A stretch of 64,000 nucleotides of DNA from assembly GCA_965649765.1 (NCBI GenBank), contig OZ287752.1:26350001-26414000 (forward strand), written 5' to 3'. Under the pieces are notes generated by a model. It ran no database searches. It was not told where the DNA came from and saw only the letters and a list, made by a program, of their open reading frames with translations. The position numbers and the translations under genes were made by a program. Source of the DNA: Bispira polyomma. Taxonomy: Eukaryota. Position 1 is the stretch's first letter; every line of letters begins with the position of its first letter. Shown piece by piece: positions 36,545 through 63,165 of this stretch.

Positions 36545-37406
36545 CTTTACAAAATCCTTGATCTGCTTATGATTATGGTGACACAGTATGACACTGTATA
36601 GTTGTATACCTTCAGAGTTCAGAGTGATTGCATATAACATATCTACTGACATTCCTAGTAACTAGGGCCCCTGTCTGTTGATCACAAGCTAGCCCACGTT
36701 TGGGTTTGGTTACAATCATCTCCTGGATTAGAAATCTTCGTATTTTGTGTTTATTTTTTGTGTGTTTATTTTTCCTATTAATGACAGCTGAGACAAATAG
36801 GCGCCAACTAGGGAGGTTTTTATTCATATTTATCTTTAATAAATTCATAATAATCCATAATGCTGCAAGAAAAAAGATCGGACTAAGAGTAGTCAACAAT
36901 AGTCATGTATTCTAACGAATTCACAAATTATAAGACAATTTAGGATTAGGTCACAACATGAAGAATACACGAGAATACTAAACGATGCTTTACAAATATT
37001 AGCTACTGATCCACCGAATGTCATGGTTACTGGTAATTACACCTGAATGTCCCAAATGAAAATGAAAGGCCTTGTGATGGAATGACGAATATCTACGACT
37101 ACTTACGAAAACACTAGAGTAATAAAATAAACCATGCTGAGCTGGTCCGGTCTCAAGCTTGCGAATACAACTGTCCATTATTTCTCAATCAAGTGATTGG
37201 CTACTTATATTCGTTTTCTGATGGTCATAGCATATTGGGCATGTATTGTTGTAAAATAATCAAAGATAACTACCACGTGTAGAGATAGAAATGCTTACCT
37301 CCCTGGATGTAACTGCAGCTTCATCTGTCTTCATATCAAACAAAACATAAAGAATTAAGGAGACGATCAACACAGATGATACACAAGTCCTAAAAGTTAA
37401 CTTCAT
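34576..37406 (-). CDS. Gene A: uronyl/heparan sulfate 2-O-sulfotransferase-like, 344 aa, two coding exons
   Basis: Exon 37406-37299 MKLTFRTCVSSVLIVSLILYVLFDMKTDEAAVTSRE (type II anchor, donor GTAAGC, phase 0) joined to catalytic exon 35502-34576. Confidence 0.9.
36421..36571. mobile_element. Small MITE with an internal C18(AC)n tract
   Basis: Left CACAGATGGATCCAGGATT, right AAAATCCTTGATCTGCTTATG; a related end CATAGGCGGATCCAGGGTTTTGTAAAA lies at ~43859. Confidence 0.55.
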
Positions 37407-37651: not shown

Positions 37652-37668
37652 TATTGATATATTGACAA
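37652..37668. promoter_or_regulatory. Conserved 17-mer TATTGATATATTGACAA upstream of all five sulfotransferase genes
   Basis: Copies at 37652, 42633, 46908 (1 mismatch), 53672, 63386. Confidence 0.55.
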
Positions 37669-40365: not shown

Positions 40366-42543
40366 TTATGACAGATTATGTCCTGTGTAGGCTTCATAAA
40401 CAATCTTGAACCTTTTTATAATAAAGTCATAGAATTCATACTCCAGCTTTATCATTTTGTTTCTCATCAGTGCTTCCCTAGTGTCGACACTTATCATTGA
40501 AGTATGGAATTGTACATCTTTGGTGTACTTTGGTCTACTTTTCTGAAGGTACCAGTGTGCTTCTATTGCCCCTTTGAAAAAATGTGGAAATAAAGTCTCC
40601 AGCACTTCTAGAAGCTCTATATACTTCTCTGTATACCCGACTACAGCGAATTCTGTCAGCACGTTCTTGATAGCCAGGTTGAGGGCATTCCTTGTTGGTG
40701 TCTGGCACAGGTAGTGTTGTCCACAGAAATGGGGGATGATGGTCCAGGTAAACCTGACATCGGTACACTCAGGGTCAAAGGTGAGGACACACTCGTCAAA
40801 TGTCATATTGCGTCTTCTTTTTGCGTCTTTGTCATCAGCATCTTTAAAGAAGTCACTTGCAACCTGTCCGTGGTAGTTGATAATCCCCTTGGTAATGTCA
40901 CCTTCCCTACGGAAGTAATAGTGGGCTTCCAGTCTCTCAATGGGATCCCTGACAATGTTGATGTACACCGGGTTGAGGTTAGGGCCATGGTTTGTGAAAT
41001 TAATGTAATTTAAGATTTTAGTAAATATCCAGGGTTCTTTTAGGCCACGTAAACCATAGGCAATATTTTGGATGCTGTTGATGCTTATATGATAGTTTGA
41101 TGTAATATACTTTTGGTCAAATGCCTTGGTTGTACTGAAGCCCTGTGTCTTTGACTGGTGCAACACGAGGAAAAGCATGGCTTTACTGCCACATCTCGGC
41201 ACCATGTTATAAAACAGCTGTCTTACAGAAGAGTTGTACTTAGCATCTACCTTGGAGATGTCCCACTCTGGCTCCTTCACCATGAGTTCTGGGGGAATCT
41301 GGAGGATATATACAAGATATAGGAACTCAAAAAAGCCTTCTCACACCCTTTAGTAAACTTATAGAGGAACCTGGAGGATCTATGCAATACATAGGAACTC
41401 TGTTAAATAAGTATTCAAAAAAGCCTTTCCACACCTTTAAGTAAACTGTCAATGTGGCCTAGTCGATAACACACTCACTTAACTACATTAAAGGACCTGG
41501 GTTTAATCCCAGACTAGGTTCAAACAGATACATAGTGGCTTGGATGGCCAATAACAAATGGTGGTGTCGTCTGTTAGTGTGTCCTATCCACAGTGGTAGC
41601 TTGAATAACCTTGGGCATGTTGATAAGTGGTCATCCTCAAGCCTCTGACTTTGGTTAGGGAAATGACAGTTACCTGTGATGGTTGGCTGTACTTAAGCAA
41701 CCAAGAAATGTTTATTAGAGTTTAGAATACCAGACAAAGGCAGACAAATATGCTGAGTATAAATTTGAATAGAATGCAATATGATATACACTTTATTGTT
41801 TCAGAATAATTTTACCTACCCGGGTGCACTAAAATTTATTGTTTAATAACAATATCTTTCATTGATGAGAAAAATGCATTAAATTGAGCAAATCTATGTT
41901 AATAGGAGACATGCTAGAGAATGGTCACGCTTAATAATTGAATATCACAGTTGAACCTTACCTCTGAATCAGTACATGTCTGTGTCTACTTCAGTCATTC
42001 CATAACTGCTCATTGTTAAGAAATGAGAAGTTGAGAGATATCTCGACACTGATGGCATAAATAATATTGAAATGATATTCTAGGATGTTCTGATGGAGCA
42101 CAGGGTTTTAAGTCATTAACAGCCAAATTGATAATCTCCTAACATGATTTTTATAAACTACTAGAACATCATCCGATTTTTCCCAGAATCTAGGCCAACA
42201 TTTGCATTATTGTGTCTGTACATGAATTGATTTTAGCAGGCAATAAACCCACTCATATCACATTGATATAGCTCCCAACAACAAACCTTATCCAGACCAT
42301 ATTCTAAATATGTTAATCAGTCACACACCATTGCTTACGCAAGAATGACAAACGATAATTATAATAACAGTAGAACGTGATAGGTTTCACTTTAAATACT
42401 TAAATATTTGTAAAGGGAAAAAAGAGATAAATACCTACCCTATTTAAGGTAAATAGGTTTTTGTTATCCTTGGTAAATAAAACATAACCAATAAACACAG
42501 TCGCCAATAAGATAAATGGAGCAGATTTTAACATTAATTTCAT
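40366..42543 (-). CDS. Gene B: 2-O-sulfotransferase-like, 345 aa, altered catalytic residues
   Basis: Anchor exon 42543-42439 MKLMLKSAPFILLATVFIGYVLFTKDNKNLFTLNR (donor GTAGGT) plus catalytic exon 41298-40366 (acceptor TCCTCCAG); frame open. Confidence 0.85.
41455..41770 (+). mobile_element. SINE family 3 in the gene B intron
   Basis: TGGCCTAGT...CCTGGGTTTAATCCC head; AATGGTGGT and GGGAAATGACAGTTAC core. Reverse copies at ~47340-47665 and ~54790-55095. Confidence 0.7.
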
Positions 42544-44377
42544 TGTTTCATCTGATACATCTGATAAGTTTTATAGAGTATTTGCAATAAAAACAATATG
42601 AAATGGCAATGTCGTTAGTGTCTGGGTTTCTTTATTGATATATTGACAAAATGCATCTCCAGGCATATTTTAAAGCCTGCCATTAATTTAAGGATACTTG
42701 TTTGCAAGCACATCTTCTGATTTGCAATATATATCTAAGTAAGAAATTTTCTGTTGTCACACTCAAAAAAATTCAATTTAATTATTTGATAAATGCTTAT
42801 CCAGATGTACAGCTGTTTGTGTAGCTTCAATATAAGTACTCTTGTAGGTGATACCTTCACTCTTGCTTTGGTACAGTGGAAAAACTGATGAAAAATAGTT
42901 GTCTGATTTTAAGCTCACATATACACACACAGGTCAGATCACATTAAAATAATACAAAAAAGGCCTCAGATTTTATCTCTTTTACAATTTCAAAGGCTGA
43001 TAATCTCAATAATGACATCCAAAAAAATGTATACATTCTGTGAGGTATAAAAGGTATAAACTTTCCAGTGTGGTTACTTCTGTGTGAAGCTGACAGAAGT
43101 AATGTTTGAGTGTGATAGCTCATGAGTAGATATCTAGGAAAAACTTATAAATCCACATATATACAGCCATACTTTTAACCCCAGCTTTTGTAAGTAGTTG
43201 CTTGGATGATCATACAGTCAGTCAAGCTGATCATCAGGTTTCAAATACTCTGTCATATTCTTTAAATTGACATTTAGATAGGACTCATATGATAGAGTGT
43301 GTCAAAAGAAATACACTTAATTCGAATTAAACATTGTGTTGAAAATTAGTCCTTTTTACATACACAAATGGTCATCCTCATGAAATGGGCAGTTTGAGTA
43401 CCACAACAGAGGAATATCTGGTGTATACCAATGCAATACTACCTTGTTCTGTTGCGAAACCTATAGTTAGCTAATTTATATAGTCAGTAAAGCTAATCAT
43501 CAGGTTACAGTGCTCTCTGTTATATTCTTTATATTCGCAATTAGATAAAAGGATCCATACAACAGAATGTGTCAAAAGAAATATATTTGATTCAAATTAA
43601 ACAATATGTTATAATTATTAATTTGTACACACAAGGTCAAAAAATTATCATCCTCAAACCTCCGTTTTTAATATGGAGAATGGCAGTTTTGATTGTAGTT
43701 GATTGGAATCAATGCCTGGACTTGTTCCGGCTTTTTATATGATTCTCTCATGTTTAGACTTTATTAGATTTTAGTTTGTCAGATGTAATGTACAACAGAA
43801 TCTACTTTTTCAAATAAAATAGGAAAAACATCAAACCACATATTTACAGCAGTGAAAGCATAGGCGGATCCAGGGTTTTGTAAAAAGTGGGGGGAAAGAG
43901 GGGAGGGGGGGGGGCAGGTATGTCCTCTCTCAGAATGTATTGTGAACATAAACTAAAATATTATTTAAAAGGCTGAGGAGGACTTTTAGCCCCTTTCTTT
44001 CAGCATTTTAATCAGCAGTTTTTGTTGGAGAAGTAGATTATTTGTCTCTATTCTGATCCTCTCCAAAATTTAATACAGTAGTCTTTGGTCCATAATGCAC
44101 AATTTCTCCACCAAATTTCTTGTTAATCTGTTTTGTTGTTTTTGTTCAATCCTAGTGACAATCAAACAAAGAAACAAATGAGAGAAAACAGAACTCATTG
44201 GGCTGAGGTCAAATGTTTTGATACCCATTAATTATAATACTATCTATGTGTGGAATTGTGCTAAAGTTTGAGATTTGTTGTTCACATTTTAAACAAATTT
44301 TTTTTTATTAATTTGTATTTCATTGGAGTAATTTTAGTATGTTTTCGCTTTTATACAATACAAAACAAGTTCATCAT

Positions 44378-44611
44378 GCACCGGCACCATGTGAAGCGTG
44401 AAAGGGAGTTGCGCCCCTTACCGTCGGATGCTATGGGGTGGGTTAACACCCAGTCTGGTTGCTTGTTGATTAAAAATCTGTTAACCCCCCTACCCTTACA
44501 ACCTTGCTATGCCCATGGACTTTACGATTGGATCACTGATTCTGCTGTTGCGCTTTAGAAGATGCCTAGCATCAATAAAGCGTATTAAAAATGGATAATA
44601 ATAATAATAAT
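44378..44611 (+). mobile_element. Retroposon 3' fragment with (TAA)n tail
   Basis: Absent from the paralogous site at ~48580; ends GCGCTTTAGA...AATAAAGCG...(TAA)n. Confidence 0.65.
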
Positions 44612-45237
44612 GAATACCCAGCCATGTTTTTGGGGCATAGGTCAATCGTTCAAAATGATGTTGGTGTGATTGGCTGAACTATAACATCACATGTTAAATT
44701 CATAACAATGGAGACCTGGTTAATAGAAATTTGCAATCTAGGTTTGTAGCCAAAATAGCAATAACACAGAATGGTAGATACCATTGTAATAATTAATGTT
44801 AAGTGCGTCTTAGTTTACTATTTTCCTTAGTTATTTGACATAAATGTAAGTATCATGTTATCTTTCATGATATTCTTTTAAAATTGAATTCCTGGATGAC
44901 ATTTCTTCATCATATTCAATGTTTAAAAGTTTATTTATGTGTGGTTACGACTGGATCATTAGGATCGTGATTGGGATGTGTGCCACAGCGTATGCCTCGG
45001 CATTGATTCGGTTGCGATAGAAGTTTAAACATTAGTATAAACCATGTACAAAGTTAACCAACTTTTGTTAACTTTGACTCAAAATCAGAAATTTGAAAAC
45101 AAAATTTGATTTACTCCAAGTAATATACGGGCGACAACAGTATCTCTGTCCACTTTAGAAAAGTAATAAATTAGATATGTGAGATTAGATATGTGTTCTA
45201 TTAGCACATGTACCATACTTTATGGTAAATGTCCTAT

Positions 45238-46734
45238 TTATAACAATTTGTGTCCAGTGGACGATTCATAAATAACCTTGAACCTCTTCCTAATGAAATC
45301 ATAGAATTCATACTCCAGCTTTATAGCATTAGTCTTCATTAGTACCTCCCTGACTTCTACACTGGTCTTTGAACCTTCGAATTCTCTCTTGTGGCGATAA
45401 CCTGGATTTTTATGGTCAAGATATGTGTGTGTTTCTACTGCACCTTTGAAGAACTGTGGCAACAACACTTCTGCTATTTCTTGAAATTGGACAAACTTCT
45501 CTACATGTCTCACTACAGCAAATTCTGTCAGCACATTCTTGATGGCCAGGTTGAGGGCATGTCTCGTAGGTGTTTGACACAGATAGTGTTGTCCACAGAA
45601 ATGGGGGATGATAGTCCAAATAAACCTGACATCACTACACTTAGGGTCAAAGTTAAGGACACACTCGTCAAATGTCATGTTGTGTCTTCTCTGAGCATCA
45701 GCTTTGTCGGAATCTTCAAAGAAGTCTTCCACAACCTTTTCCCAGTAGGTGATAATGTTCTCTGTTAAATTCATGGTCCTACGAAAGTATTAATGAGATT
45801 CTAATTTATCAATGGGATCTCTGACAATATTGATATAAACTGGGTCAAGGTTGTAGCCTTCTTCTGTGAAATTAATATAGTTTAAGTGTTTGGTAAACAG
45901 CCAGGGTTCATTGAGGCTCAGTAGACCACAAGCAGTGGTTCTGATGCTTTCTTTGCTGATATGATAATTAGCTATAATGTGCGTCTGTGTGAAGTATTTG
46001 CTTACGATGTAGTGATTGGCTTTCAACAGGCTATTGAGGAGGTGACGCATGGGCTTGCTTCCACATCTAGGCACCATGTTATAAAAGACCTGTTTTGTAG
46101 AAGAGACATTCCTCTTGTTAACCTTCAATAAATCCCATTGTGGAGCCATCAAAGTTTGAACAGATACCTTCAGGAAAGAAACAATACAAAAACAACATTT
46201 TTATGCTCATATGTATATTCTTTCATCTAAAAAATATGTGATACCATTTTATTTTGCTAATACCGAGACAATCTACTGCAGAGTTGCTGAAAATGCAAAC
46301 CTTAAGCTACCTACCTAACAATAGCAGAATCTAATAGCTTAACAGAGAACTATTAAAATAGCCATATAAAAAAATTTGTACACTGGAAGCAATTTATATT
46401 TAAAAGCAATATATTTACCTTGTTTTGTGTACACGGATCATCCTTATCAAAAACACGAAAAGCAACAGACAAAATTATCAAAGATAACCCAACAACAAAC
46501 ATTATCCAAGCCATATTCTAAATATGTCAAGAAGTATCACACCATTGCTTACACAAGAATGACAAACGATAATTATAATAACATTAGAATGTGTTAGGTT
46601 GCACTCTAAATACTTAAATATTTGTGCGGGGCAAATGTTATAAATATGTTTTTGTTATCCTTGGTAAAGAGAACATAAACAATAAACACAGTTGCCAATA
46701 AGATAAAGGGAACATATTTTCCAATTAATTTCAT
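45238..46734 (-). pseudogene. Gene C: 2-O-sulfotransferase-like pseudogene
   Basis: Catalytic exon 46167-45238 has TAT>TAA at 45790-45792 (ESH*YF vs ESHYYL). B-type anchor exon (ATG 46734) lacks its donor. Hybrid anchor exon 46514-46419 is intact. Confidence 0.88.
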
Positions 46735-47339
46735 GGTTACTTCTGATTCTGGAGTAGCTACTAGAAACACATACAAATATTATTATGATAAAAATTCTTC
46801 TTTTGTACTGATACAGAGATGTTCAGTAAGTATGTTTTACAGGGTGTTTGCAATAAAAACAATATCAAATGCCAATGTGGTTAGAGTCTGGGTTTCTTTA
46901 ATCAAGTTATTGATGTATTGACAAAATGCTTCTTCAGGCATATTTTGAAACCTGTCATTAGGTTAAGGACACATGTTTGCAAGCACCTCTTCTGATTGCA
47001 ATATATATCTAAGCAAAAAATTGCTGTTGTCACACTTTTATCCAATTTTTATCTGAAATACAACATATGCCCTGCATATTTATTTATTTATTCGTAGATG
47101 TAAGTACATTCATTTCAAACATTTCTATATACAAACAAAAACAAAAATACAATACAATATCTTTTATATGGAAATTATAAATTTACTAAATACGATATTT
47201 ATATATATGGATATTATAAATGTACTTGTTTACTTATTACACAGATGTTGATTGGTCCAATACGGTCTTTAGCAACTCATAACCACCGTCTCACTGGGGT
47301 TTTTTTACATTACCTATCATGTAAAACAGCATGATTATT

Positions 47340-47665
47340 GCATTGTATTATATTCAACTTGGTACTGATCGTACTTTACCTGTCTTTGTCTAGTATCCAA
47401 ACTGTCCTTTCAATTAATTAACCTTTTCTTGACTAAGTACAGCCAATAAGCACCGCAGTAACTGTCATTTCCCTGAATGAAGAGTGAGGCTTAAGGATGT
47501 CACCATTTATCAACTTCACCAAAGTTATTTCGCCTGCCACTGAGGTTGGGGACACCCAGCAATAGAGGACCACCATTTTAAATGGAGATCTGAACCATAT
47601 GCCTGTACCCCTTGTCATAAAAGGCAGGGATTGAACCTAGGTCCTTTGTTTTCCTAAGTGAGTTA
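47340..47665 (-). mobile_element. SINE family 3, reverse
   Basis: GTAACTGTCATTTCCC, GAGGACCACCATTT, GGGATTGAACCTAGGTCC (B box, reverse); paralogous copy at ~54790-55095. Confidence 0.7.
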
Positions 47666-48750
47666 ACACAGATAATTACCTTTGTAATATTTCCTGTTTC
47701 TGAAAATAACTCTTTCTAGATGTAACACTTTACAAGATGAGACAAATCTTACATTAGTAGTAATCTGACAAATTTTTGGTTAACATTTTCTTGCAGTGAA
47801 ATATTATGCTATCTGCTGCAGAATTATATGTAACAAACTAATCAAATTAGTGCCATATGTAAATTATAGGTAATTGTAACATGTCAGGACCATAGGGCGA
47901 CATTCATCTGTGGTTAAAGTCAAAACTTTGTTTCATATATAGTATACTTCGTGAAGTTGATTGGAATTAATGCCTGGACTTGCCTCACGTTTTACATGAT
48001 TCTTTGATTTACACTCATTTACACTAATTTAATCATTGTAAGATTTTAAACTTTTTTAGATTTTGTGTTTGTCAGATGTAATGTGGAACCACAGTATCTA
48101 TATTTTCAAATAAAAAATGTTTTGTTGCAAATTTGACCTACCTATCATCCCTCAACACATTCCATGTATAAATGCTGATTAGTCATTGTTTAATCATGTT
48201 GACACAGAAACAATTAGCAATAAACTAACCAACAGGCATGAGTATAATTAGGATATATATGAGTTCATTATTGGTTTTTACTCTTATCAAAAATTTAATA
48301 CAGTCATCTTTGGTCCATGATGCACCATTTATCCAAGAAATTTCATGTTACTCTGTTTTGTTGTTTTTGTTCAATCCTGGTGACAATAAAGCAATGAAAC
48401 AAATGAAAGAAAACATTAGGCTGAGGTAAAAATGTTTTAATCCCACTTCAATCTAATACTATCTATGTGTGAAATTGTGTCAAGGTTTGAGAACTCTTGT
48501 CCACATTTTGTCTTCATTTGTATTTCATTGGAATAATTTTAGTATGTTTTCGATTTTATACAATACCAGACAAGTTCATCATAACAAAATGAATACCCAG
48601 CCTTGTTTTGGGTGCATATGTTAATAAAAAAAAAGAGTTTACTTATGTGTTGTTACGACTGGACTCTGATCACAAACTTTTGCCTTCTAGCATATTCTTT
48701 TTTGGGATCGTGATTGGGATGTGCACCACAGTGTATTCCTAAGCATTGAT

Positions 48751-51245
48751 ATGCCCTTTCTCTTTAGAATCCACAAACTTCAAGAAATTTTGAAACTACA
48801 AATCACAACTCTGCACTTCAGCATAAGGCTGCTATTACTCAATACTTGAATAAGGAAAAGGACTGTGGGGCAATGTTAGGCCCTGTCACTGAATTCTTAG
48901 ATTAGGATTATTTCCACTGCTCACCTCTGCTAACCAGGCCTAAGTACATTGATAAACGTTGAGTGATTTTGAATTTATCTTATCCTAGAGGAAATTCGGT
49001 AAATGACAATGTAGATAAAGAACAATTTGATGGAACAGCCTACCTGATCATATTCGCCTGGCTCAAACTTTCTCCTCTTTCAGGAGTAAGCTGAAGGCCT
49101 ATCTTTTTGAACAGGCTTTTCCACCTTAGCCGTCGCAACCATTTACGGTAGTCTCCCTGGTTACGACTTCCATCCGCCCACTATTTTTGATTTTCGATTA
49201 ACGTTTTGGGTTTGTTGCGCCTTAGAATTTGTTGTACAAAGATTAAGTGTTATAAAAGTACGACTAGATTAGATTAGATTAGATTAGATGGTTTACAATT
49301 TAGACTTAAATTTCCAACCATAGATAACATAGTTGAACAAATTCGAAATACAGTAGAACCGAAAATATCAAACTTGACGTGGCCCGCTCCTTTAGAAACC
49401 TCAGGGTCGACCTAGCTGATGCAATGAAGTTAGGTATTTGTTTTAAAGGTGTAAAATACGTAGATCCAGCGGTCGCATTCGGCTGGGTACATGGCTCGGC
49501 GGCCTTTCAGCGGTACTCCGACATGGTAGCACACTACATGGAAAAGAAAAGGTATAAAATATTCTGTTACATCGACGATTACATTGGCAAAGCCACTTCC
49601 ACTGTAGCAGATACTGCTTTCAATGAATTATATAAATTGGTCACTGACCTGGGTTTGCCTCTTAATCCGGATAAGGTAATCAAACCAAATTTTACAATCA
49701 CTTGTTTAGGGATTGACATTGACAAAGAAATTATTAGTATTACCCAAGAAAAGATTAAGGAAACTTAGCAACTTTGTCTAGACATGTTAAACAAACTGTG
49801 GATTTCTCACACAAAAGTCCAATCGGTCTTAGGAAAATTGCTCTATATACACAAATGTGGTAAACCTGCTAGGATGTTTGTCAACCTGTTGCTTAGGGCT
49901 TAGATGCCTACTTAACAGGATTAGGGGGTATTTACAAGAATCAGGTTTATGCTACTCCTTCTATAATATATACGGAAAAGAACTTACCACAGTAAGCACT
50001 TAGGGTCTGGGGTAAGCAGTGGAGACACAGGAAAATAACTGTTAAGTGCGACAATATGGCTGTCGTACTGGTAGTGAGGTCAGACAAAACCAAAGATGAA
50101 TTCTTTGTCTAGCACTTTGTCTACGCAATATTTGGCTTATTTCTTCAATTTTCAATATCGCTATTGAGATACAACATATAAAAGGTAAAGAGAATGTAAT
50201 TGCAGACTTGTTTAGAATATTTTCAGAAGAACCTCCCAAGGGAGAACAAGTCAATATTATCAATGAAAATTGTATTTGGAGAACTATACCAATAGCGTTT
50301 CTTAACTTAGATATTAATATATAATTTCAGGTGCCACTCAAGTGCCACAAGCTTTCACCAGCTCAGCATGGCAAAGGATAAACCACTCACTTCGACCACA
50401 GACTAGCATGACTTATAACAACCAATTCAAGACATTTATTTCCTTCAACTGTTATGCTGGCATTGACCAGATCTCCACACATTCACTAGTGGCTTTCTTA
50501 GAATACCTAGTTCAAACTGGGGCTCCACCCCTTAGCATCAATAATTACTTGTCTGGCATAAAACACATCGCCAAAAAATTATAGTGGGATCTGAACATTT
50601 TGAAAATAATACTATTGCCATGTTAACAAGAAGCTTGTGACATCTCCAAGGCTTGTGACATCTTGGATGATCCTCCACTTTATAGGGATATTTTTTGCTT
50701 GCCTTTTTTGCCTTTTTAAGGATGTCCAATATTGCCCCCCCCCCCCTCCATTCAAGGGCCAAATTTGATCACACTAGGAATTTCCTAAAGAAAGATATAA
50801 CATTTGGCTACCCAGGGGCTCATATCATCTGGAAATGGGCAGAAAATTTACAGATTAGATCTCAATTTCATGTTATTCAAATCCCTTGACTAACAAACAC
50901 TGTTCTCTGCCCAGTTACAGCATTACAAAAGCTACTTCACACTAGGCCACTCCCTGACCACTATCCACTTTTTGCTGGGCTTACCCAACCACACCATGCT
51001 ATTGTAGACTCACACGTTAGAATAGCCCTTGCCAAGGTTTGGCTTGGGCTTTTAAAAATCTCATCTATTTTTAAACCTGTCTTTTGACATTTTACCTGAT
51101 ATTGTATATAGACTTTTGCACTAACATGTATAGTAATAATAAAGATACCTCAAACCATAAACAACTGTGTTGCTTTATCAACTTACATCTAACGTAACTT
51201 TGAAACTTACACACTGGCTTTAACAAGGACAACTGGACTCCATCT
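48751..51245 (+). mobile_element. Second degenerate DIRS retrotransposon (RT, RNase H, YR)
   Basis: SPLLTRPK, VILNLSYP, FGWVHGS, YIDD, CLGI, KCDN, ENVIADL, FAFLRMSN, LCPVTAL. Host similarity to the paralogous unit stops at GCATTGAT (48750). Confidence 0.9.
49034..49286 (+). mobile_element. L2 family 2 3' fragment nested in the DIRS RT
   Basis: (ATTAG)n tail; flanking GATGG repeat; removal restores EQFDGLQFRLKFPTID. Confidence 0.92.
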
Positions 51246-51291
51246 AATGTGGTATCAGCACATGTACTATACTTTATGGTAAATGTCCTAT

Positions 51292-53505
51292 TTATGACAA
51301 TTTACGTCCAGTGGATGATTCATAAATAACCTTGAACCCCTTCCTGATGAAGTCAAAGAATTCATACTCGAGTTTTATAGCATTATTCTTCATTAGTACC
51401 TCCCTGGCTTCTACACTGGTCTTTGGACCTTTGAATTCTCTCTTGTGGCGATAACCTGGATTTTTGTGGTCAAGATATGTGTGTGTTTGTACTGCACTTT
51501 TGAAGAACTGTGGCAACAACACTTCTGCTACTTCCAGAAACTGGACAAACTTTTCTACATGTCCCACTACAGCAAATTCTGTCAGCACGTTCTTGATGGC
51601 CAGGTTGAGGGCATGTCTCGTGGGTGTTTGACACAGATAGTGTTGTCCACAGAAATGTGGGATGATGGTCCAGATAAACCTGACATCAGTACACTCAGGG
51701 TCAAAGGTCAGAACACACTCGTCAAATGTCATGTTGTGTCTTCTCTGGGCATCTGCTTTGTCTGCATCTTTGAAGAAGTCTGCCACAACCTTTCCCCAGT
51801 AGGTGATAATGTTCTCTGTTAAATTCACGGTCCTACGCAAGTAATAATGAGATTCTAATTTATCAATGGGATCTCTGACAATATTGACGTAAACTGGGTC
51901 AAGGTTGTAGCCTTCTTTTGTGAAATTAATATAGTTTAAATGTTTGGTAAACAGCCAGGGTTCCTTTAGGCTCAGTAGACCGTGAGCGGTAGTTCTTATG
52001 CTTTTTTTGCTGATATGATAATTAGCTATAATGTACGTCTCGGTGAAGTCTTTGCTTACGGTGTAGTGATTGGCTTTCGACAGGTTATTGAGGAGGAGAC
52101 GCATGGACTTGCTTCCACATCTAGGCACCATGTTATAAAAGACCTGTTTTGCAGAAGAGACATTCTTCTTGTTAACCTTCAATAAATCCCATTGTGGAGC
52201 CATCAAAGTTTGAACAGATACCTTTTGGAAAAAAACCAATAAAATATCAAATGTTTATGCTCATATGTACATTCTTTTATCTAAAATAATATGTGACACT
52301 ATCTTATTTTGCTTATACAATGTACTGAGAAAACCTACTCCAGAGTTGCTGAAAAATGCAAACCTTAAGTTACATACCTAACAATAGCAGAATATTATAG
52401 CTTAACAGAGAACTATTATAACAGCCATATAAAGCCTAAAAAATGTGTACACTGGAAGCAATTTATTTATAAAGCAATATGTTTACCTCCTTTTGTGTAC
52501 ATGGATCATCCTTATCAAACGCAAGAAAAGCAACAGACAAAATTACCAAAGATAACCCAACAACAATCTAATCTAATCTAATCTAGTCGTACATTTATAG
52601 CGCTTAATCTTTGTACAACAAATTCTAAGGCGCAACAAACCCAAAACGTTAATCGCAAATCAAAAATAGTGGGCGGATGGAAGTCGTAACCAGGGAGACT
52701 ACCGTAAATGGTTGCGACGGCTAAGGTGGAAAAGCTTGTTCAAAAAGATAAGCCTTCAGCTTACTCCTGAAGAGGAGAAAGTTTGAGCCAGGCGAACATG
52801 ATCAGGTAGGCTGTTCCAAATGAGGGGGCCATCATGAGCTAGGCAGTGATTGAACTGAACTTTGGATTTGTGGATGCGAGGGTCGAAAGTGGGAATGTTA
52901 AGGTATAATTTATCAGGTTTACTGCGCCTTGTCCTGACTGAGCATGTATATTTGGATAGATGGGGGCTAAAATAAGTGGGTAATCCAGAATTTAGAAATT
53001 TATATATTATTGTTGCTGTTTTGAAAGCAACACGATATTTTATTGGGAGCCAGTGCAGTGACTTGAGTACAGGAGTAATGTGGGAAAATTTAGATGTTTT
53101 GGTCACAATACGTGCCAATGAGTGTTGGATATTCTGAAGGCGTCTGAGATCACTACGAGATAAGGAACGAAACAGAGAGTTGCAGTAATCAAGCCTGCTG
53201 CTGACCAAAGCATTGGCAACAGTGATTGCAGTGGATTTGGAAAGATAGCATTGTCCAAACCATATTATAAATATGTTTAGAAGTCACACACCCTTGCTTA
53301 CACAAGAATGACAAACGATAATTATAATAACATTAGAACCTGTTGAGTTTCACTTAAATACTTAAATATTTGTAAAGGGGAACAAGAGATAAATACTCAC
53401 CTTATTTGATGTAAATATGTTTTTGTTATCCTTAGTAAAGAAAACATAAACAATAAACACAGTTGCCAATAAGATAAAGGGAACATATTTTCCAATTAAT
53501 TTCAT
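51292..53505 (-). CDS. Gene D: chimeric 2-O-sulfotransferase-like, 344 aa
   Basis: B-type anchor exon 53505-53401 MKLIGKYVPFILLATVFIVYVFFTKDNKNIFTSNK (donor GTGAGT) plus E-type catalytic exon 52221-51292; frame open. Confidence 0.85.
52566..53240 (-). mobile_element. L2 family 2, 5'-truncated, in the gene D intron
   Basis: SRLDYCNSL...HITPVLKSLHWLPI; (ATTAG)n tail. Confidence 0.95.
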
Positions 53506-54509
53506 GGTTAGTTCTGATTCTCGAGTAGCTACTAGAAACACATACAAATATTAAAATGATAAAAATCCATATTTTGTACTGATACAGAGATGTTCAGTAA
53601 GCACGTTCACAGAGTGTTTGCAAAAAAAACAACAATACTAAATGCCAATGTCATTAGAGTCTGGGTTTCTTTATTGATATATTGACAAAATGCATCGTCC
53701 GACATATTTTAAAACCTGTCATTAATTTAAAGACACATGTTTGCAAGCACATCTACCGACTGGTTCACCCAATTTAATCCAATTTTTATCTGACATATAA
53801 CATATGCCCTACAAATAGTTTTAAGGCCACATATACACACACACAATCAGATTACAATCACATTAAAATAATACAAAAACGTTATCAGATTTTATCCCTT
53901 TTACAATTTTTAAAAGGTTAAGAATTTCAATAATGACATGCCAAGAAATTGCATACAATCTAGTTTTCCTAGGTATAAACTTAACAGTGTGGCTATTTCT
54001 GAGTGAAATTGAGAGAAGTTGTCTTTGAGTATGATAGCTCCTGAGCATATATCTTGGCAGAGCTCATTAATCCATAGAGATACAGCCATTCTTTTGACCA
54101 CAGTTTTTGTTAGTAGTTGCTTGGATGAGCATAAAGTCAGTAAGCTAATCATCAGGTTTCAAATACTCTGTCATATTCTTCACATTCACAATTAGATAGA
54201 AGGACCCATATGACAGAGTGTGTCAAAAGAAATATGCTTGATTCAAATTAAATGATGTGTTGAAATTAGTCATTTTTACATAGAGAGTCACAAATGGTCA
54301 TCGTCATGTAATGAGCACTTTGAGTACCACAACAGAGGAAGATGTGGTGTATAACAATGCAATACTACCTTGTACCATTTTTGCCCATAGAAGGAAATTT
54401 AAAAATTGAAGCTTTCCTGAGGCAGTTTATGGTAAGTAAAACAGATGTTAGATTTAGATTTGTTTTGGGATTCAGTTGTCAGATTTCTAAACTGCAAACC
54501 GGCCTTCCC

Positions 54510-54542
54510 ACATACATACATACATACATACATACATACATA
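54510..54542. repeat. (CATA)8 microsatellite
   Basis: Read directly. Confidence 0.9.
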
Positions 54543-55434
54543 GGGCCATACATAGGGACATAGATTGGAAACCCTCAACTGCAGAATCGAGAAGTGATTA
54601 CCTCTACATCAACAGGGTCTCCAGCAGGGATGAGATCTGTAACTAGTAAAACATATTTCACTAGGAAGACTAAGAATTGCCTCTACAGACTACCATATTG
54701 CAATCTTTTCGAATTAAGTGGGCATTGTCTTTCCAGGTAGGACATTTTTTTTTCCTTATTTTACCTATCATGTAAAACAGCTGGTTTCTTGCATTATGTA
54801 TTCAAATTGGTATTCAACATCTTTTACAATGCATTTTCACTAAACTAACGTTTTCTTAACTGCCTAGCTACAACCAACTGGCACCAGTAACTGTCATTTC
54901 TCTAAATGAAAAGTGAGACTTAACGATAACTATTTCTCAACATCACTGAGTTAACTAACCTTCCACTGGAGATAGGCACCCAGCAATAGAGGACCACCAT
55001 TTCAAATGGAGGTCCGAGCTATCTGCCTGTACCTTTTCAAAACTGGCGGGAATGGAACCCAGGTCCTCTGTGAGTGTGATAGCTACTAGGACCAAGTGGC
55101 AGATATTTACTTCTATAATATTTCTAGTCTCTGAAAACAGACTCTTTGTAACACTTTACAGGATGAGACAAATCTTAAATAGTAATCAGACAATTTGGGG
55201 GTTAAAATTTATCTTGTGGTGATATATTATGCTACCCGCTGCAGAATTACATAGAACAAACTAACAAAGTTATTGCCAAATGTAAATAGTAATTGTAACA
55301 TGCTATGGCAATATAGCCATATTTATCAGTAGTTAAAGCAAATACTTTGTTTCAAATCTAGTATACCTGTTGTAGTTGATTGGGATCAATGCATGGACTT
55401 TTTATGTGATTCCCTGATTTACACTTAGAGCAGT

Positions 55435-57885
55435 ATCTAATCTAATCTAATCTAGTCGTACATTTATAGCGTTTAATCTTTGTACAACAAATTCTAAGGC
55501 GCAACAAACCCAAAACGTTAATCGCAAATCAAAAATAGTGGGCGGATGGAAGTCGTAACCAGGGAGACTACCGTAAATGGTTGCAACGGCTAAGGTGGAA
55601 AAGCCCGTTCAAAAAGATAGGCCTTCAGATTACTCCTGAAAGAGGAGAAAGTTTGAACCAGGCGAACATGATCAGGTAGGCTGTTCCAAATGAGGGGGCC
55701 ATCATGAGCTAGGCAGTGATTGAACTGAACTTTGGATTTGTGGATGCGAGGGTTGAAAGTGGGAATGTTAAGGTATAATTTATCAGGGTTACTGCGCCTT
55801 GTCCTGACTGAGCATGTATATTTGGATAGATAGGGGCTAAAATAAGTGGGTAATCCAGAATTTAGAAATATATATATTATTGTTGCTGTTTTGCTGTTTT
55901 GAAAGCAACACGATATTTTATTGGGAGCCAGTGCAGTGACTTGAGTACAGGAGTAATGTGGGAAAATTTAGATGTTTTGGTCACAATACGTGCCAATGAG
56001 TGTTGGATATTCTGAAGGCGTATGAGATCACTACGAGATAAGGAACGGAACAGAGAGTTGCAGTAATCAAGCCTGTTGCTGACCAAAGCATTGGCAACAG
56101 TGATTGCAGTGGATTTGTAATGTAAATGTAAAACCGTCATGGATTCTGGTAATTTTATCAGTGAAAAAAGTACTAAAAATGTTTGCCAGTGATTTGCTAT
56201 TGGAATTTTCGGGTAGTATAGTCTGTTTTTTACGGTGGAGGGTGTTATTTAGTTTTTGCCAAAGTTTCTTCGGGTCACCCTCGCTTTGTGATATCATGTT
56301 AGCATAGTAGGCACGTTTTGAGTCATTTATAGTGTTGTTGCACCGGGTGATCCATTGGCGTAGTCTAGATCTATTTGTAGTAGTTTTGTTTCGGCGCCAT
56401 GTTCGTTCGGCTTGTCTGCGCAGCATCTTCATTTCACAATAATTACTGGTGATCCACTCAGGTGCAGGCTTCTTCAATGTCTTTGATTTACATGGCGCAT
56501 GGCGTTCTATAAGAGACTGCAGGTCAGTGCAGTACTGTGTGAAAAGGTCAGTGGCATTATCAGCAGGAGACTTGATGAAGGCCGTATCTGCCAACTCTCG
56601 TCTAAGGTCAGACATATTGATTTTTTGAAATTGCCGAAAAGTGATTTGTGTGACATCAAAAGATGGTGGGGAGGTAGCATCAATTTCACAGGATATTGAA
56701 AAATGATCACTGATGCAACCAATGTTTTTTATGTTTCTGATACCATTGAAATCAGTCGGAGTTAGCAAGCAGTCTAGTGTATGCCCATGAATATGGGTAG
56801 GGAAGTTTATGTGTTGGGTAAGATTGCAAGATTCCAAAACTGTGGAAAACTGATTACTATTTCCAGATGCGGTGTCTATGTGAATATTGAAATCCCCACA
56901 GAATACAGTAGGAGAGGGTAACGAGCAAGTAAACCCAATAAAAGACATGAATTCTTCGAAAAATGTAGTGAGATTTGAGCCAGGAGGCCGATAAACTGTT
57001 GCAAAATTTAAACACTGCTTTTTCCAGTGAGCAGAGACAAGGATGAGTTCGAAAGATGTAAAACTTGGTGTAGCAACTAATCGACATTCATAGTTTTTCT
57101 TAATAAAAAATCCCACCCCCCCCACCCTGTTTACCTACACGAGGGGTATGGAATAGCTGAAAGTCAGCTGGGGTAAGTTCAGAGAGGAATGATGGAGTAT
57201 CAGAACTCCTAATGTGTGTTTCTGTGATGCCGAAAATATCTATGGAGGATGAGTCGATCAAATCGGCTATGACAGGGCCTTTATTCCGCAACGAGCGGGC
57301 ATTTCCAAATCCGAACTGATTTGGGCCAGGGTTACTCGCAATATCACCTGCCAGTAGGATAGTAATGAGTTTGAATGTTTTAGCCTTTGGTAGGTAATTG
57401 ACTGGGCAGAATTTAGATCGAAAATAACAGTGTGTATGAAGGGACCAGAAGTGTGGAACAGGATTGCAAGACAAATTAATGTCTTCCAGGTGGTACTGCA
57501 TTGACAATGTATCAGATAGTTTTAAGTTGTTGCGGTAACAGAACGTAAGGAATGACAGGTACAAGATGGCAGCCCTAATGGCAAACATATTGTAAGGGGA
57601 GGAGTGAAAAAACAATATTGAACAAAAGTAAAAGTGTAAAAAGAAAAAGCAATTCGGAGCAAAACAAGGAATAAAATATTGCGTGAGGATACAAAAGGGC
57701 CAAGCGCTAAAAGTAAACGTGATGGTACAAAAAAAGGGGTACCAAGCACAAAAAACAGAAAACAATATATAGTGGTAATAGTCGATAATAGGGGATAGTT
57801 TTCAGTATAACCCCAAATTAAAAAAATAAGAGATGTTGTACAAAGACTAAGCATAAAAATAATCACACAAGTTTTAATCAATTGA
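55435..57885 (-). mobile_element. L2 family 2 element with 5' region, 2A-like motif and APE endonuclease; RT deleted
   Basis: LLAGDIASNPGP, NARSL, ITETH, GGGVG, YRPP, GDFN, THIHGHTLD, SDH; then DKITRIHDGF is fused at ~56130 to the C-terminal NRLDYCNSL; (ATTAG)n tail. Confidence 0.93.
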
Positions 57886-58029
57886 TTCTAATTCGAAGGT
57901 TTAATCAATAACAAGAACAGTCATTGTAAGATTTTAGACCGTGTGTTTGCCAGGTGTAATGTAGAATCACAGAATAGGAATATTTTTAAAAAAAAAAACA
58001 TCAGGCCACAAAGTCACAGCTCCAAAAGA

Positions 58030-59462
58030 ATAGACAAATTCAGGATTTAGTAAAAATGAGAAAGCCTATGGAATGAAAATACAAAATATTCCATGTCTGT
58101 ATAGAACAGAGACAACCACAGCATGGCTGAAAAAACTATATGATAAAATCTGGCAGGACGAAGAAACTCCAAAAGAATGAAGGAAAGTGATATTAATAGC
58201 TCTGACAAAAAAGGAGATGTCAGTAAATGCTGAAGAGGTGTAACCTTGCTATCTGTGCCAAGCAAAATACTAGGAAGCATAATGAACCTACAAGGATCTT
58301 GGTCACTGTTGACCAACACTTAAGAAAATAACAGGCAGGCTTTAGAAAAGGACGAAGAACAACTGACCAAATATTCGTTCTGATAAACATAGTTGACCAA
58401 AGCATAGCATGGCAAGCGCCTCTATACATCAACTTTATCGAAAAAGCATTTGATAGCATCCACAGAGAAACATTATGGAAAACACTAGAGTTGTATGGGG
58501 TACCACCAAAAATAACCAATGTGATCAAGAAACTATATGAAAAAGCAAAGTATGCGTAATGTACAACAGTAACACTTATAGAATTATTAGCAGTATGTCT
58601 GGATTCCTCTTCTTAATTGCACTAGACAGGGTCATGAGAAACAGCACAAAATGGAAAAATACTGGTACAAGAAGGAAATTCACAACCTATAAGATCTGAT
58701 TTTGCTGACAACATCACAATACTATCCAGTAGACATAAAGACAGATAGAGTCAAAGAATGGGCCGAAAAAGTAAGACTAAAAATAAATAAAAGAAAAACC
58801 GAGTGAATGAGAATCAATACAAAATTAGACAAAAAACTAGAAAAAACAACAACAAAGAAATTGAAGATTGCAGCGAGTTCATATATCTGAGAGCCAAAAT
58901 AAACACAAATGGAGGAGCCAGTGAAGATATAAATACTAAACTATAACAAGACAGGAACGCATTCGCAGTCAAGTTCGGAAATAAAACATCTACAACAAAG
59001 CTAACCAAGGTGAAGATCTATAAAATAAATGGGAAATCAATCTTACTATATGGATAAGCATGCTGGAAAACAACAAAAGCGGATGTAAAGACATGCGAAA
59101 CGTTCTAAAATAGATGTCTGAAAAGAATTCTAAAAATATCCTGGCCAACAAAATTACCAATCAACACCTTTTAGAAAAAACAAAAGTAAAGTCAATGGAA
59201 ATTAGTATAAGAAAAGGAGATGAAAACACATAGGCCACAAGAACAGAAAATGGTATGAAAGTGGCAATGACATGGGCCCCATAAGGAAAAAGAAAAAAAG
59301 GAAGACCCAGAGAAACATGGAGGAGGACAGTAAAAAGAGAGAGAAGAGAGATGGGGTGGTCCAACTAGAAAGAAGCAGAGGCTGTAGCCAAAGACAGACC
59401 AAGGTGGAAAAGAGTGCTTGTCGTCTGATGTTCCAACAGGGGCGAAGATAAAAAGTAAGTAG
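58030..59462 (+). mobile_element. Degenerate RTE-clade LINE
   Basis: GVTLLSVPAK, QAGFRKGRRTTDQIF, EKAFDSIHRETLW, YGVPPKI, DFADN, RKKGRP-ETWRR; TAAG-like tail. Confidence 0.88.
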
Positions 59463-60099
59463 AAAACATTGTAATATTGTGTTCAGTAACAAATATAGTT
59501 GACCACCAGGCTTGATACCAATAATACAAAAACATGACATTTAAATTATTTGACAATAAAGGCCAATTTTAAATACATTGTTTCTTCATTCTATACAAAA
59601 TGAAACCTTTCGGTTTGACTTTTAACCCTTCTCTTTTTACTATTTTATGAATGCATATAGAGTGAAGTCCGTAGGTTTTGTTGGATCTTTAACAAGTACA
59701 TTCTAGATTAAACAAATTCGACAGACCACAAAAAATATGGACATTTTCCTTGCATTGTCGTAATGTTGAGAACAGGACTACATTATAAAACTAAAGCCAA
59801 AACAAAAGGATCCACTTATATAATTAATGATAGTAAGCACCAGCCCATTGTGGGTTTTGAATAGTTGTTAAAAGGCAGAATTACATACCTCTGCCAGACA
59901 CTATTTGTCCCAAAAAAATAAAAACAGTTCATGAATCCACCTTCTATCAAGATCCAGGGTCATAGACTCGTTGGAAACTGAAGGTGGCCAGCAGGGCCAG
60001 TAACTTTTACACTTTAGTGGCCTGTATGAATATAAAGTGGCCTTTAAAATTTTCTAATTCTGATACGCCATTACGGTACCCATGATAAAAAAAATCAGG

Positions 60100-60313
60100 A
60101 CTATTAAGACTAAAGAATCTAGAATTGGCCACTGTATCTGAAATTGGCCACCTCTAAAAGTTAAGCTAAATCAATAAAAACTGGTGAAATATAACTGGAA
60201 TGTGGTTAAGTAAGACTAAAAAGTCACAAAATTCGGCCAAAAACACAACATTTTCTAGGTGGCCAATATCAGATACAGCGGCCAATTTTAGATTCCTTAA
60301 TCCTTACTCTAGT
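60100..60313. mobile_element. Small fold-back MITE
   Basis: GAATCTAGAATTGGCCACTGTATCTGAAATTGGCCACCT is inverted at AGGTGGCCAATATCAGATACAGCGGCCAATTTTAGATTC. Confidence 0.8.
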
Positions 60314-61790
60314 ATCTTTCCATAAAATTCACCAAAAGTCCATATATAATATGCAGCGTCCATTCTAGGAATTTCAAAATGTGGGGGCACTTCCCCACTG
60401 TCACTGAAAAAGTGGGGGAATGCAATTTCAAATGGGGGACAAAAGTAAGCAATTTAGCCAATATAAAAATTCATCAAATAAATTTATGCTGTCCATTTAT
60501 GCTGTCCATTTATGCTGTCTGATATATGCATCTGATGTGCAATACAAAAAAAACAAAAAACTTCCCCTTTATGGTTGCTAGGGTTTGAATAAATTATACA
60601 CTGTTTTTATGTGGTTACAAATCCACTCGCTAGGTGGCGCTTGGAATTTGCTAGAAGAAAGCTAGTCGTTTATTGATTGTCACAGGACAACTCCTCGATT
60701 TTGAACTAATGAAAATGTAGCATACAAACAGCCACTGTATTTTAATATTTTAGAAGCTGCACAGAGTGAGATATGTGGTTGTTTTGTTTACAAATGGCCT
60801 AATCCGCAATTGAAGGAAATGTTATAAAATAAAGCCGATAAAAGGTATTTTATTGCTTTAAATCGTTGCAGGACACGTGGACTTCGAATCCTGTATATCG
60901 CTCATGCGCTGAAGTAATAAAAATGCGTTTTTTATTTGGGTAGTGGTTTCATTTAGCGATCGCGAAAACCGGAAGTAAGCAAACTTCTTCGAGAACGGCT
61001 TTTGTCTTGTCACCTCCAGATCTAAATCGTCAGCCAGGCGACCTCGAAATATGTTTTACTTATCGAAATAAAGTCGCCACTGGCGAGTTCGCGACTGCGA
61101 ATTTTTGCCCCTGAAGATCCACTACAAAATAATTTTTTTCTTTCATAAATTTTTCTTTGGCCCATTATTTATATGTAAAATAATGTTAAGTTTGAGATCT
61201 GTTGTCTAAATGTTAAATAAAAGCAATACTTTTTATTGATTTTTATTCCATAAGAGTAATTTCAGTATTTTTAGCTTTTATACAATACAAAACAAGTTCA
61301 GTGTAACAGCAGAAATACACAGCCATCTTTTAGGCTCATATGTCAATTTTAAACTCGAACAACACATTGTAAATTCATAACAATTGAGACTTGGTTTATT
61401 ATGATTTTGTAAATTTTTAGGTTTGTAGCCAAAAAAGCAATAGCACAGAATGGTAATAAACAATAATACTATGGTAAAACTTGGAAGTTGAGTGCATATG
61501 TAGTTCATATATTCCAAGATTTCTGAACAAAAATGGAATTAAGTAAAAAGTATCATTTCATCTTACATTGTATTATTTTTATGTTTAATTCCTGAATGAA
61601 ATTTCTTTATAAAATTAAATGCTTAAGGGTTGATTTACGTGTGGTTAGGACTGGAGTCTGTGTCTGGACACAGATTGTGGTGCTTTAGAAGTTAACATTA
61701 ACATTAACAATGTACAAACCAACTCTATATGGTATATTACTCCATATAATTGGTTCAATGTGTGCTATTAACACATGTGTAATGTCCTAT

Positions 61791-63165
61791 TTATGACAAT
61801 TTGCGTTCAGTGGATGATTCATAAATAACCTTAAACCTCTTCCTGATAAAGTCATAGAATTCATACTCCAGCTTTATTGCATTATTCTTCATCAGTACCT
61901 CCTTGGCTTCTACACTTGTCTTTGGACCATCGAATTCTCTCTTGTGGCGATAAGCTGGAATTTTATGGTCAAGATATTTGTCCATTTCTACTGCACCTTT
62001 GAAGAACTGTGGCAACAACACTTCTGCTACTTCTAGAAACTGGACAAACTTTTCTACATGTCCCACTACAGCGAAATCCGTCAGCACATTCTTGATGGCC
62101 AGGTTGAGGGCATGTCTTGTTGGCGTTTGACACAGGTAGTGTTGTCCACAGAAATGTGGGATGATGGTCCAGATAAACCTGACATCAGTACACTCAGGGT
62201 CAAAGGTGAGGACACACTCGTCAAATGTCATGTTGTGTCTTCTCTGGGCATCTGCTTTGTCTGCATCTTTGAAGAAGTCTGCCACAACCTTTCCCCAATA
62301 GGTGATAATGTTCTCCGATAAATTTGCGGTCCTACGCAAGTAATAATGAGATTCTAATTTATCAATGGGATCTCTGACAATATTGATGTAAACTGGGTCA
62401 AGGTTGTAGCCTTCTTTTGTGAAATTAATATAGTTCAAGTGTTTGGTAAACAGCCAGGGTTCATTAAGGCTAAGTAGACCATGAGCAGTGGTTCTGATGC
62501 TTTCTTTGCTGATATGATAATTGGCTATAATGTACGTCTCGGTGAAATCTTTGCTTACGGTGTAGCGATTAACTTGCGACAGGCTATTGAGGAGGTAACG
62601 CATGGGCTTGCTTCCACATCTAGGCACCATGTTATAAAAGACCTGTTTTGCAGAAGAGACATTCCTCTTGTTAACCATCAATAAATCCCATTGTGGACCC
62701 ATCGTAAATTGAGCAGATTCCTTCAAAAAACAAACAATAAAAGAATAAAATTTTATGCTCATATGTACATTCTTTGATGTACAATACGCATCACCAAAAA
62801 TATAAAATTTCAAAAGGGACCAATTTATTTTTAGCTCTAATAAATGGCTACAAGGCTGCACATTCTGAACTATAATCAGTTGACGTCATTTAATTTTACT
62901 AATACCGATGCAGTTTTATTAAGTTGCTGGCAATGCAAACCTTGAGTTACATACTTAACAATAACAGAATCTAATAGCTTAATAGAGAACTGTGGAAACT
63001 GATATAGTAAGCCTTGTAGAATTTGTACACTAGAAGGAATTTATATACAAAAGCAAATATATTTACCTCTTTTTGTGTACTTGGATCATCCTTATCAAAG
63101 ACAAGAAAAGCAACAGACAAAATTATCAGAAGAAATAATAGGAACGATTTAAACCTGAACTTCAT
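61791..63165 (-). CDS. Gene E: 2-O-sulfotransferase-like, 342 aa
   Basis: Anchor exon 63165-63067 MKFRFKSFLLFLLIILSVAFLVFDKDDPSTQKE (donor GTAAAT) plus catalytic exon 62720-61791 (acceptor TTTTTTGAAG). Confidence 0.9.

Follow-up and report, generated by a model that had tools for sequence, protein, structure and literature searches.

We analysed a window of 64,000 nucleotides of the genome of Bispira polyomma (GenBank assembly GCA_965649765.1, contig OZ287752.1, positions 26,350,001 to 26,414,000), in which a cluster of sulfotransferase genes occupies the minus strand from 22.9 to 63.2 kb. The cluster holds five genes of the HS2ST/UST type, here named E, D, C, B, and A in order of transcription. 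Each has two coding exons joined in phase 0: a first one of 33-36 codons, hereafter the anchor exon, which encodes a basic tail, a hydrophobic stretch, and a stem, and a catalytic exon of about 310 codons. Scripted splicing at GT-AG introns gave open frames of 344 (A), 345 (B), 344 (D), and 342 (E) residues, and all four carry a type II signal anchor (best hydropathy over 17 residues of 2.1-3.0, starting at residue 7 or 8). Four of six queries scored above the Pfam cut-off for PF03567 (Sulfotransfer_2), both misses being halves of C. Among solved structures, D matched only two PDB sequences, both HS2ST; the match to 3F5F covers residues 27-299 (E=6.5e-25).

Genes B and E flank C and D. One complete anchor exon is present in each of A, B, and E. 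All exons, introns, and exon relics given below lie on the minus strand. The anchor exon of E (63067-63165, 33 codons) can be aligned over its full length with those of A and B, and its catalytic exon (61791-62720) was delimited by Pfam search and alignment. In B, the coding part of the anchor exon (42439-42543, 35 codons, donor GTAGGT) is followed by an intron, with a 5' part at 42274-42438 and a 3' part at 41299-42273, and by the catalytic exon (40366-41298, PF03567 with E=1.3e-06). Gene D has its anchor exon at 53401-53505 (donor GTGAGT), a phase-0 GT-AG intron of 1179 bp, and its catalytic exon at 51292-52221 (PF03567 with E=1.1e-07). The catalytic exon of C is at 45238-46167, preceded in the direction of transcription by an intron of E type (46168-46418) with a 90-bp gap relative to E, which the alignment shows to be shared with D.

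The preliminary description of this DNA had proposed that E-like sequence extends upstream of the catalytic exons of C and D up to GACAAAATTA(T/C)CA, in the middle of the E anchor exon, before switching to sequence of the B intron and then to an anchor exon of B type. This layout is borne out. The motif is found at 46468, 52536, and 63116, and the start of the B-like part, CCCAACAACAAAC, at 42274 and 46488; the copy at 52556 keeps the first 11 bases out of 13 before the tail of a retroelement begins. In self-BLAST, 42274-42556 matches 46488-46747 and, from 42288, 53251-53518, whereas the matches of 46245-46484 and 52344-52552 are to E and extend to 63133. The 5' part of the B intron is 89.9% identical to 46488-46625 and 86.9% identical to the sequence from 53251 onward. 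Beyond the junction, the anchor exons are of B type, with 91 of 105 nucleotides identical between B and D and 85 of 105 between B and C, against 57/99 between D and E and 53/99 between C and E. The catalytic exons show the opposite affinity (861/930 for D-E, 844/930 for C-E, and 661/930 for B-D).

C and D share a single junction, which joins the B intron, ending at 42274, to the 3' two-thirds of the E anchor exon. In a three-way view of C (46481-46488), the similarity to the B intron ends at 46488 and that to the E anchor exon begins by about 46481, roughly 7 bp apart and at positions that are not homologous; no clear microhomology was seen there. That the two limits would coincide within about 7 bp in an intron of 1140 bp has a chance of about 1%, unless they mark the edge of a duplication. 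The junction of D, at 52555-52556, has the same position. The introns of both genes contain a relic of the 3' part of the E anchor exon. In C, it spans 46419-46487, has an intact GTAAAT donor, and differs from E at 7 positions over its last 63 nucleotides; in D, it spans 52487-52555 and has kept a GTAAAC donor. Three features had been missed in the preliminary description: an insertion of 677 bp (52566-53242) about 11 bp from the junction of D, a gap of 23 bp at the splice donor of C, and a premature TAA in C. The insertion is the 3' piece of a non-LTR (long terminal repeat) retroelement with a (TAGAT)n tail, inserted later on the minus strand into the B-type piece of the D intron. It is 96.5% identical to 55435-56120, which adjoins an endonuclease open reading frame (PF14529); the frame of the inserted piece itself has no match in Pfam.

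The trees of the two exons were expected to disagree, and they do. The anchor exons group B, C, and D (98/98) and the catalytic exons group C, D, and E (100/100), each tree having five rows; the anchor tree covers 99 columns and has a long A branch, and the catalytic tree was built without codons 155-225. Approximately unbiased (AU) tests rejected the grouping of C, D, and E for the anchor exon (p=0.023) and of B, C, and D for the catalytic exon (p=0.0006). The identities and the AU tests agree in showing that C and D have their 5' part from one gene and their 3' part from another. Within the alignments, B holds 9 of the 11 three-way singletons of the anchor exon, and immediately before its ATG (around 42556-42565) it is missing about 75 bp that C and D keep and that include an acceptor-like stretch.

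The sequence around the genes reveals how far the repetition extends. Three units can be delimited, 42274-46485, 46486-52565, and 53243-63133, whose spacer blocks are colinear, on the same strand, and 76-92% identical in pairwise BLAST. The B upstream region and spacer (42565-45199) share such blocks, here 76-91% identical, with 46831-51253 and 53611-61781. The unit is bounded on the right, in the sense of transcription, at 42274, and on the other side within the E anchor exon at around 63129-63135. A BLAST search with the units found no copy near C or D of the 5' part of the E anchor exon and its upstream DNA, nor of the 3' part of the B intron, both of which are single-copy; the other matches of the latter are only a dispersed repeat and internal repeats. 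Both parents thus flank the chimeras, the interval between them has been duplicated colinearly, including the anchor exon of B and the catalytic exon of E, and the outer flanks have not. The colinear spacers and single-copy outer DNA argue for a tandem duplication, and the identity of the two junctions for one junction-forming event after which the hybrid was copied. We consider it very probable that C and D are chimeras born in this way, from the middle of the E anchor exon to the B intron, with D intact and C broken. By its testable features, D belongs with the chimeric genes that arise through tandem duplication. The duplication of the B-to-E interval proposed in the preliminary description stands as the source of both chimeras, of which only D is intact, and its triplication is correct as a net copy number, whereas the shared junction indicates one event and later copying.

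The two hybrids differ in state. In C, the 23-bp gap deletes the donor of the B-type anchor (46488-46734 with the B-type intron piece, ATG at 46734), and the frame that reads through stops after 42 codons. The catalytic exon has TAA at 45790-45792 (codon 127), where D and E have TAT. The open frame across the joined parts is thus broken twice, and C is a pseudogene. For comparison, D encodes 344 amino acids without internal stops and has canonical GT-AG splice sites across the joined parts. When each three-way singleton was assigned to the odd copy, without rooting, the branch of D had 12 synonymous and 12 nonsynonymous changes, that of C 14 and 27, and that of E 18 and 24. The resulting ratio of nonsynonymous to synonymous rates (dN/dS) is lowest in D, at 0.26-0.38 depending on the assumed transition bias (p=0.001-0.016 against neutrality). 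In C it is 0.51-0.73, not clearly below neutrality nor significantly different from D (p=0.29). The anchors of C and D differ at 2 of 84 nucleotides, both silent, against 29 of 246 in the flanking non-coding DNA (p=0.009), and their relic half-exons differ at 7 of 69, like neutral flanks. The rarity and silence of the differences between the anchors suggest that it was the B-type anchor that the genes used, if their similarity is not due to conversion.

The likely starting point can be approached from outside the cluster. A protein search with D gave 4 matches among 441 candidates, including an E-like (P0001), an A-like (P0002), and a B-like (P0003) record, which pair in trees with (C,D,E), A, and B, respectively, with support of 97-99 (99/98 for B and P0003). 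This pairing, obtained with outside records that carry no anchor sequence, fits an ancestor with three genes, E, B, and A. Upstream of all five start codons, at distances of 106-262 bp, we found the 17-mer TTGTCAATA(T/C)ATCAATA, a candidate shared regulatory element. Its copies lie at 37652, 42633, 46908, 53672, and 63386, and are present even in the old paralogs A, B, and E. Since the complete E anchor aligns with those of A and B and the 17-mer is common to all five genes, one anchor per gene looks ancestral. An acceptor-like sequence shortly before the ATG of A, C, D, and E may point to a non-coding first exon; even so, the spacer between E and B was copied in full.

We infer the following order of events. 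The ancestor would have had three tandem genes for Golgi sulfotransferases with two coding exons, in the transcription order E-B-A, each with one anchor and one catalytic exon. Without regard to gene boundaries, a tandem duplication would then have copied DNA from the middle of the E anchor exon through the E catalytic exon, the spacer, and the upstream region and anchor of B, to 165 bp into the B intron. Its single new junction would have made a hybrid with a B-type upstream region and anchor, an intron containing the leftover half of the E anchor exon, and an E-type catalytic exon. This hybrid would have been copied into C and D when the new repeat underwent unequal crossing-over, and conversion would later have mixed the copies. 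The duplication is old, with a synonymous divergence (dS) of about 0.16-0.20.

Conversion in the cluster has independent indications. A, B, and E are old paralogs, with dS of 0.8-1.1, and yet their codons 160-215 or so are nearly identical. Codon permutation and the tree of the tract place it at 62079-62246 in E, with matching tracts at 34861-35028 (A), 40654-40821 (B), 45526-45693 (C), and 51580-51747 (D). In the best window of the A-E comparison, 29 of 30 codons for the same residue are identical (permutation p=0.0004). The values are p=0.003 for A-B and p=0.013 for B-E, and five of the ten pairs have p<0.05, uncorrected for multiple tests. The protein tree of the tract rejects the pairs A+P0002 (p=0.006) and B+P0003 (p=0.03). 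The tract of about 56 codons is common to all five paralogs, and A and E share an identical run of 68 nucleotides despite a dS above 1. This pattern shows that the genes of the cluster have exchanged sequence. Conversion cannot, however, have made the off-register junction.

Gene A, an outgroup to the chimeras, has a single anchor exon (37299-37406), the only one found for it by tblastn. Its catalytic exon (34576-35502) is the first of four near-identical tandem copies: the exon, a 3' intron, and the 3' flank are repeated four times between 22921 and 36507, in units of about 3.39 kb that are 99.6% identical. Away from the edges, the copies differ by 6 substitutions, one of which alternates between units, and by the length of a (TA)n tract. 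In the copy at 31184, a tyrosine replaces the cysteine of the loop that binds 3'-phosphoadenosine 5'-phosphosulfate (PAPS). The array may be a very recent gain in copy number, a set of alternative last exons like those of the Drosophila gene pipe, or an artefact of assembly.

Could the anatomy of C and D have arisen otherwise? The local result would be no different if a B promoter and anchor had been inserted into E-like genes, by dispersed insertion or a long conversion, and the cluster does show conversion. We searched near C and D for the orphans this predicts, a 5' part of the E anchor or a 3' part of the B intron, and rejected dispersed insertion when none was found. In addition, the spacers are colinear across whole units, and conversion requires homologous ends while the junction joins an intron to an exon, so we consider this origin very improbable. 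A layout with two anchors could instead be ancestral, the second having been lost from B and the first from E. In its favour, the end of the B intron has an ATG in frame with the C relic, and nearby bases loosely resemble those upstream of the E start. The resulting frame in C (46514-46419, minus strand) starts in the B-intron piece, has 32 codons with a hydropathy of 2.58, and runs across the junction as far as the donor of the relic, staying in phase with the catalytic exon. At random cut points, an in-frame ATG was found in 177 of 1080 cases and a hydrophobic stretch as well in 39, i.e., a chance level of 4-16%. Considering these rates, the stopped upstream frame, the neutral drift of the relic, and the splitting of the version in D by the insertion, we treated this rebuilt second anchor as a product of chance. 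An ancestral pair of anchors is also at odds with the one complete anchor and the same upstream 17-mer in A, B, and E, and needs two more events, both ending at one and the same base, which makes it highly doubtful. Finally, haplotypes joined end to end might imitate a duplication, and the neighbouring A array is similar enough to be a product of assembly. To this we give next to no credence, as the three units diverge by about 8-20% and have insertions and deletions of their own.

The order of the events after the junction and the present state of D are less tidy, and here several observations speak against the tandem duplication followed by copying and a working D. On the E side, the non-coding singletons (17 in C, 28 in D, and 64 in E, in 446 gap-free sites, p=5e-8), the 90-bp intron gap common to C and D, and the dS of 0.16 between C and D, against 0.185 and 0.20 for comparisons with E, favour a duplication that was followed by copying through unequal crossover. 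The shared derived sites of the catalytic exon, taking A and B as outgroup, number 10 for CD, 4 for CE, and 2 for DE, four of them inside the conversion tract. On the B side, where B should be the most distant, there are 14, 14, and 14 singletons in 246 sites. The catalytic nucleotide tree does not resolve C, D, and E (48/19). With protein sequences, (C,E) is the favoured pair (84/86), but (C,D) is not rejected (p=0.074). The singleton labels are clustered along the exon, with 45 adjacent pairs in a total of 99 labels (p=0.009). A single replication-based event that laid down two extra copies at once would also give identical junctions, and the star-like B side and the catalytic tree would suit it. 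Yet it would need a much faster E lineage or a later conversion between C and D to account for the E-side singletons and the shared gap, and we find it unlikely; later conversion or further crossovers are the likely cause of the untidy two-step signal. As for D, the similarity of the anchors could stem from conversion, and the comparison of relic and anchor alone is not significant (p=0.079). An insertion of 2.5 kb (48750-51253) starts about 40 nucleotides past the D stop, with the first AATAAA at +852, and the retroelement piece in the D intron lies in the sense direction and contains AATAAA. Either could impair expression. With C already broken and constraint on a branch able to predate silencing, both hybrids might share the proposed origin and now be silent, D being a young or poorly expressed pseudogene. 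This is possible, if rather doubtful, since the 344 codons of D contain neither stops nor frameshifts, its splice sites are canonical, and its dN/dS is lower than those of C and E.

If D is a working product of the tandem duplication, its transcript would arise from the copied upstream region of B and be spliced from 53401 to 52221, skipping the relic half-exon, to yield a type II membrane sulfotransferase of 344 amino acids with a B-type anchor and an E-type domain. The likely effect would be regulatory, an E-type enzyme being made where and when B is made. The splicing, transcription, expression pattern, and activity of D are predictions from the DNA. In Drosophila yakuba, expression was raised in 24 of 76 tandem-duplication chimeras but in only 5 of 66 duplicates of whole genes (PMC5460883), which makes a change of expression plausible here. 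The preliminary description also suggested a change of position in the Golgi. This finds no support in the anchors: those of B, D, and E have similar lengths, short tails with two or three basic residues, and hydrophobic stretches that start at residue 7 or 8 and score 2.1-3.0, so the Golgi position of D is probably unchanged. GOLPH3 binds positive residues close to the membrane (PMC8421267). The tail of E has one more basic residue than that of D, so that a small shift could still occur.

The active site separates the two types of enzyme. D has a histidine aligned with His142 of HS2ST, and A, C, E, and P0001 have a histidine in the same column. In the sequence alignment, B has an isoleucine there (around 41014-41016), and P0003 a leucine with another histidine two residues on. 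His142 is the putative catalytic base of HS2ST, and the H142A mutant retains less than 1% activity (PMC6094399). Given its absence from B and P0003, proteins of B type may be inactive or work differently, as pseudoenzymes or with altered chemistry, and D would put a complete active site under B control. The PAPS-binding loop, aligned to 3F5F in D, has a lysine in A and an arginine in B-E, and the serine of the 3'-phosphate helix is present in D, its position being judged by alignment; the general catalytic motifs were taken from PMC11625862. One may go further and see D as a selected regulatory rewiring in which B, a paralog that may be inactive or act differently, lent its upstream region and anchor to a catalytically complete E-type domain, adding a sulfation step in the cells expressing B. 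The cluster might then be a cassette for mixing and matching, in view of its phase-0 exons, the off-register duplication, the four anchorless A exons behind one anchor, and the repeated conversion of 56 codons between genes whose silent sites are elsewhere close to saturation. We regard this combined proposal as speculative and unlikely.

The window is AT-rich and of animal type, with a G+C content of 32-44%, retroelement debris, and a gene of the facilitator family of transporters. The exons of this major-facilitator transporter lie downstream of the cluster at 14863-17366 on the minus strand (PF07690, E=3.9e-13). Remains of non-LTR retroelements with matches to endonuclease and reverse transcriptase were found at 55435 to about 57800 and at 10429-12122, and the insertion at 48750-51253 holds an inverted piece of the same young element as in the D intron (49031-49285) together with a reverse-transcriptase fragment (49337-49768). 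A dispersed repeat of about 250 bp has at least six full or partial copies (6440, 8714, 16457, 19217, 38256, and 39732), which are 72-98% identical. At 263-2418 (minus strand) there are fragmented frames, one of which was searched in Pfam and had no match; they presumably derive from a retroelement of DIRS type.

Literature searches listed nothing on this locus, which is a weak negative. The mechanism is already established, and the locus is a clear case of it. It is an unusually legible example of natural exon shuffling between paralogs, in which one sees the parents, the junction down to the base, the half-exon left as a relic, a dead sister gene, and a candidate outgroup. Should D be expressed like B, it would offer a natural test of whether the capture of a 5' region, rather than dosage, keeps a duplicate, and of whether replacing one Golgi anchor by a similar one has any effect. 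Within the HS2ST/UST family (PF03567; PDB 3F5F and 4NDZ), D shares the PAPS-binding motifs, the histidine aligned with His142, and the N-terminal hydrophobic anchor. The cluster differs in that the catalytic domain is one exon, the arginine before the PAPS loop is replaced by methionine, and B lacks the histidine. Apart from the group of P0001-P0003, the best among the 150 matches listed is 41% identical, which marks the cluster as a lineage-restricted subfamily.

Other systems resemble parts of this locus. The pipe locus of Drosophila is HS2ST-like, with a common first exon and ten isoforms (PMC3291829), its variable domain being present in ten copies according to a title cited there, and gene A likewise has one anchor for four catalytic exons. 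The A copies are, however, 99.6% identical and the likeness lies in the layout alone, while C, D, and E have their own anchors. As to the origin of D, the CYP11B1/CYP11B2 hybrid and the anti-Lepore globins also put the coding part of one paralog under the promoter of the other with both parents kept, and they arise by in-register homologous crossover. The SEC1P-FUT2 fusion se-fus is likewise a natural hybrid of tandem paralogous genes that modify Golgi glycans (PMC10000471). It results from unequal crossover at homologous positions, whereas here an intron is joined to the middle of an exon, copies were added, and a relic half-exon was left; the joining of the B intron to the middle of the E exon rules out an in-register hybrid of the se-fus or Lepore type. 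The tandem-duplication chimeras of D. yakuba (PMC5460883) represent the same kind of gene formation. In contrast to them, the event described here is old (dS of about 0.16-0.20) and gave a hybrid that was copied again, and its parents are old paralogs whose introns agree in phase, so that their combination yields an enzyme of normal length.

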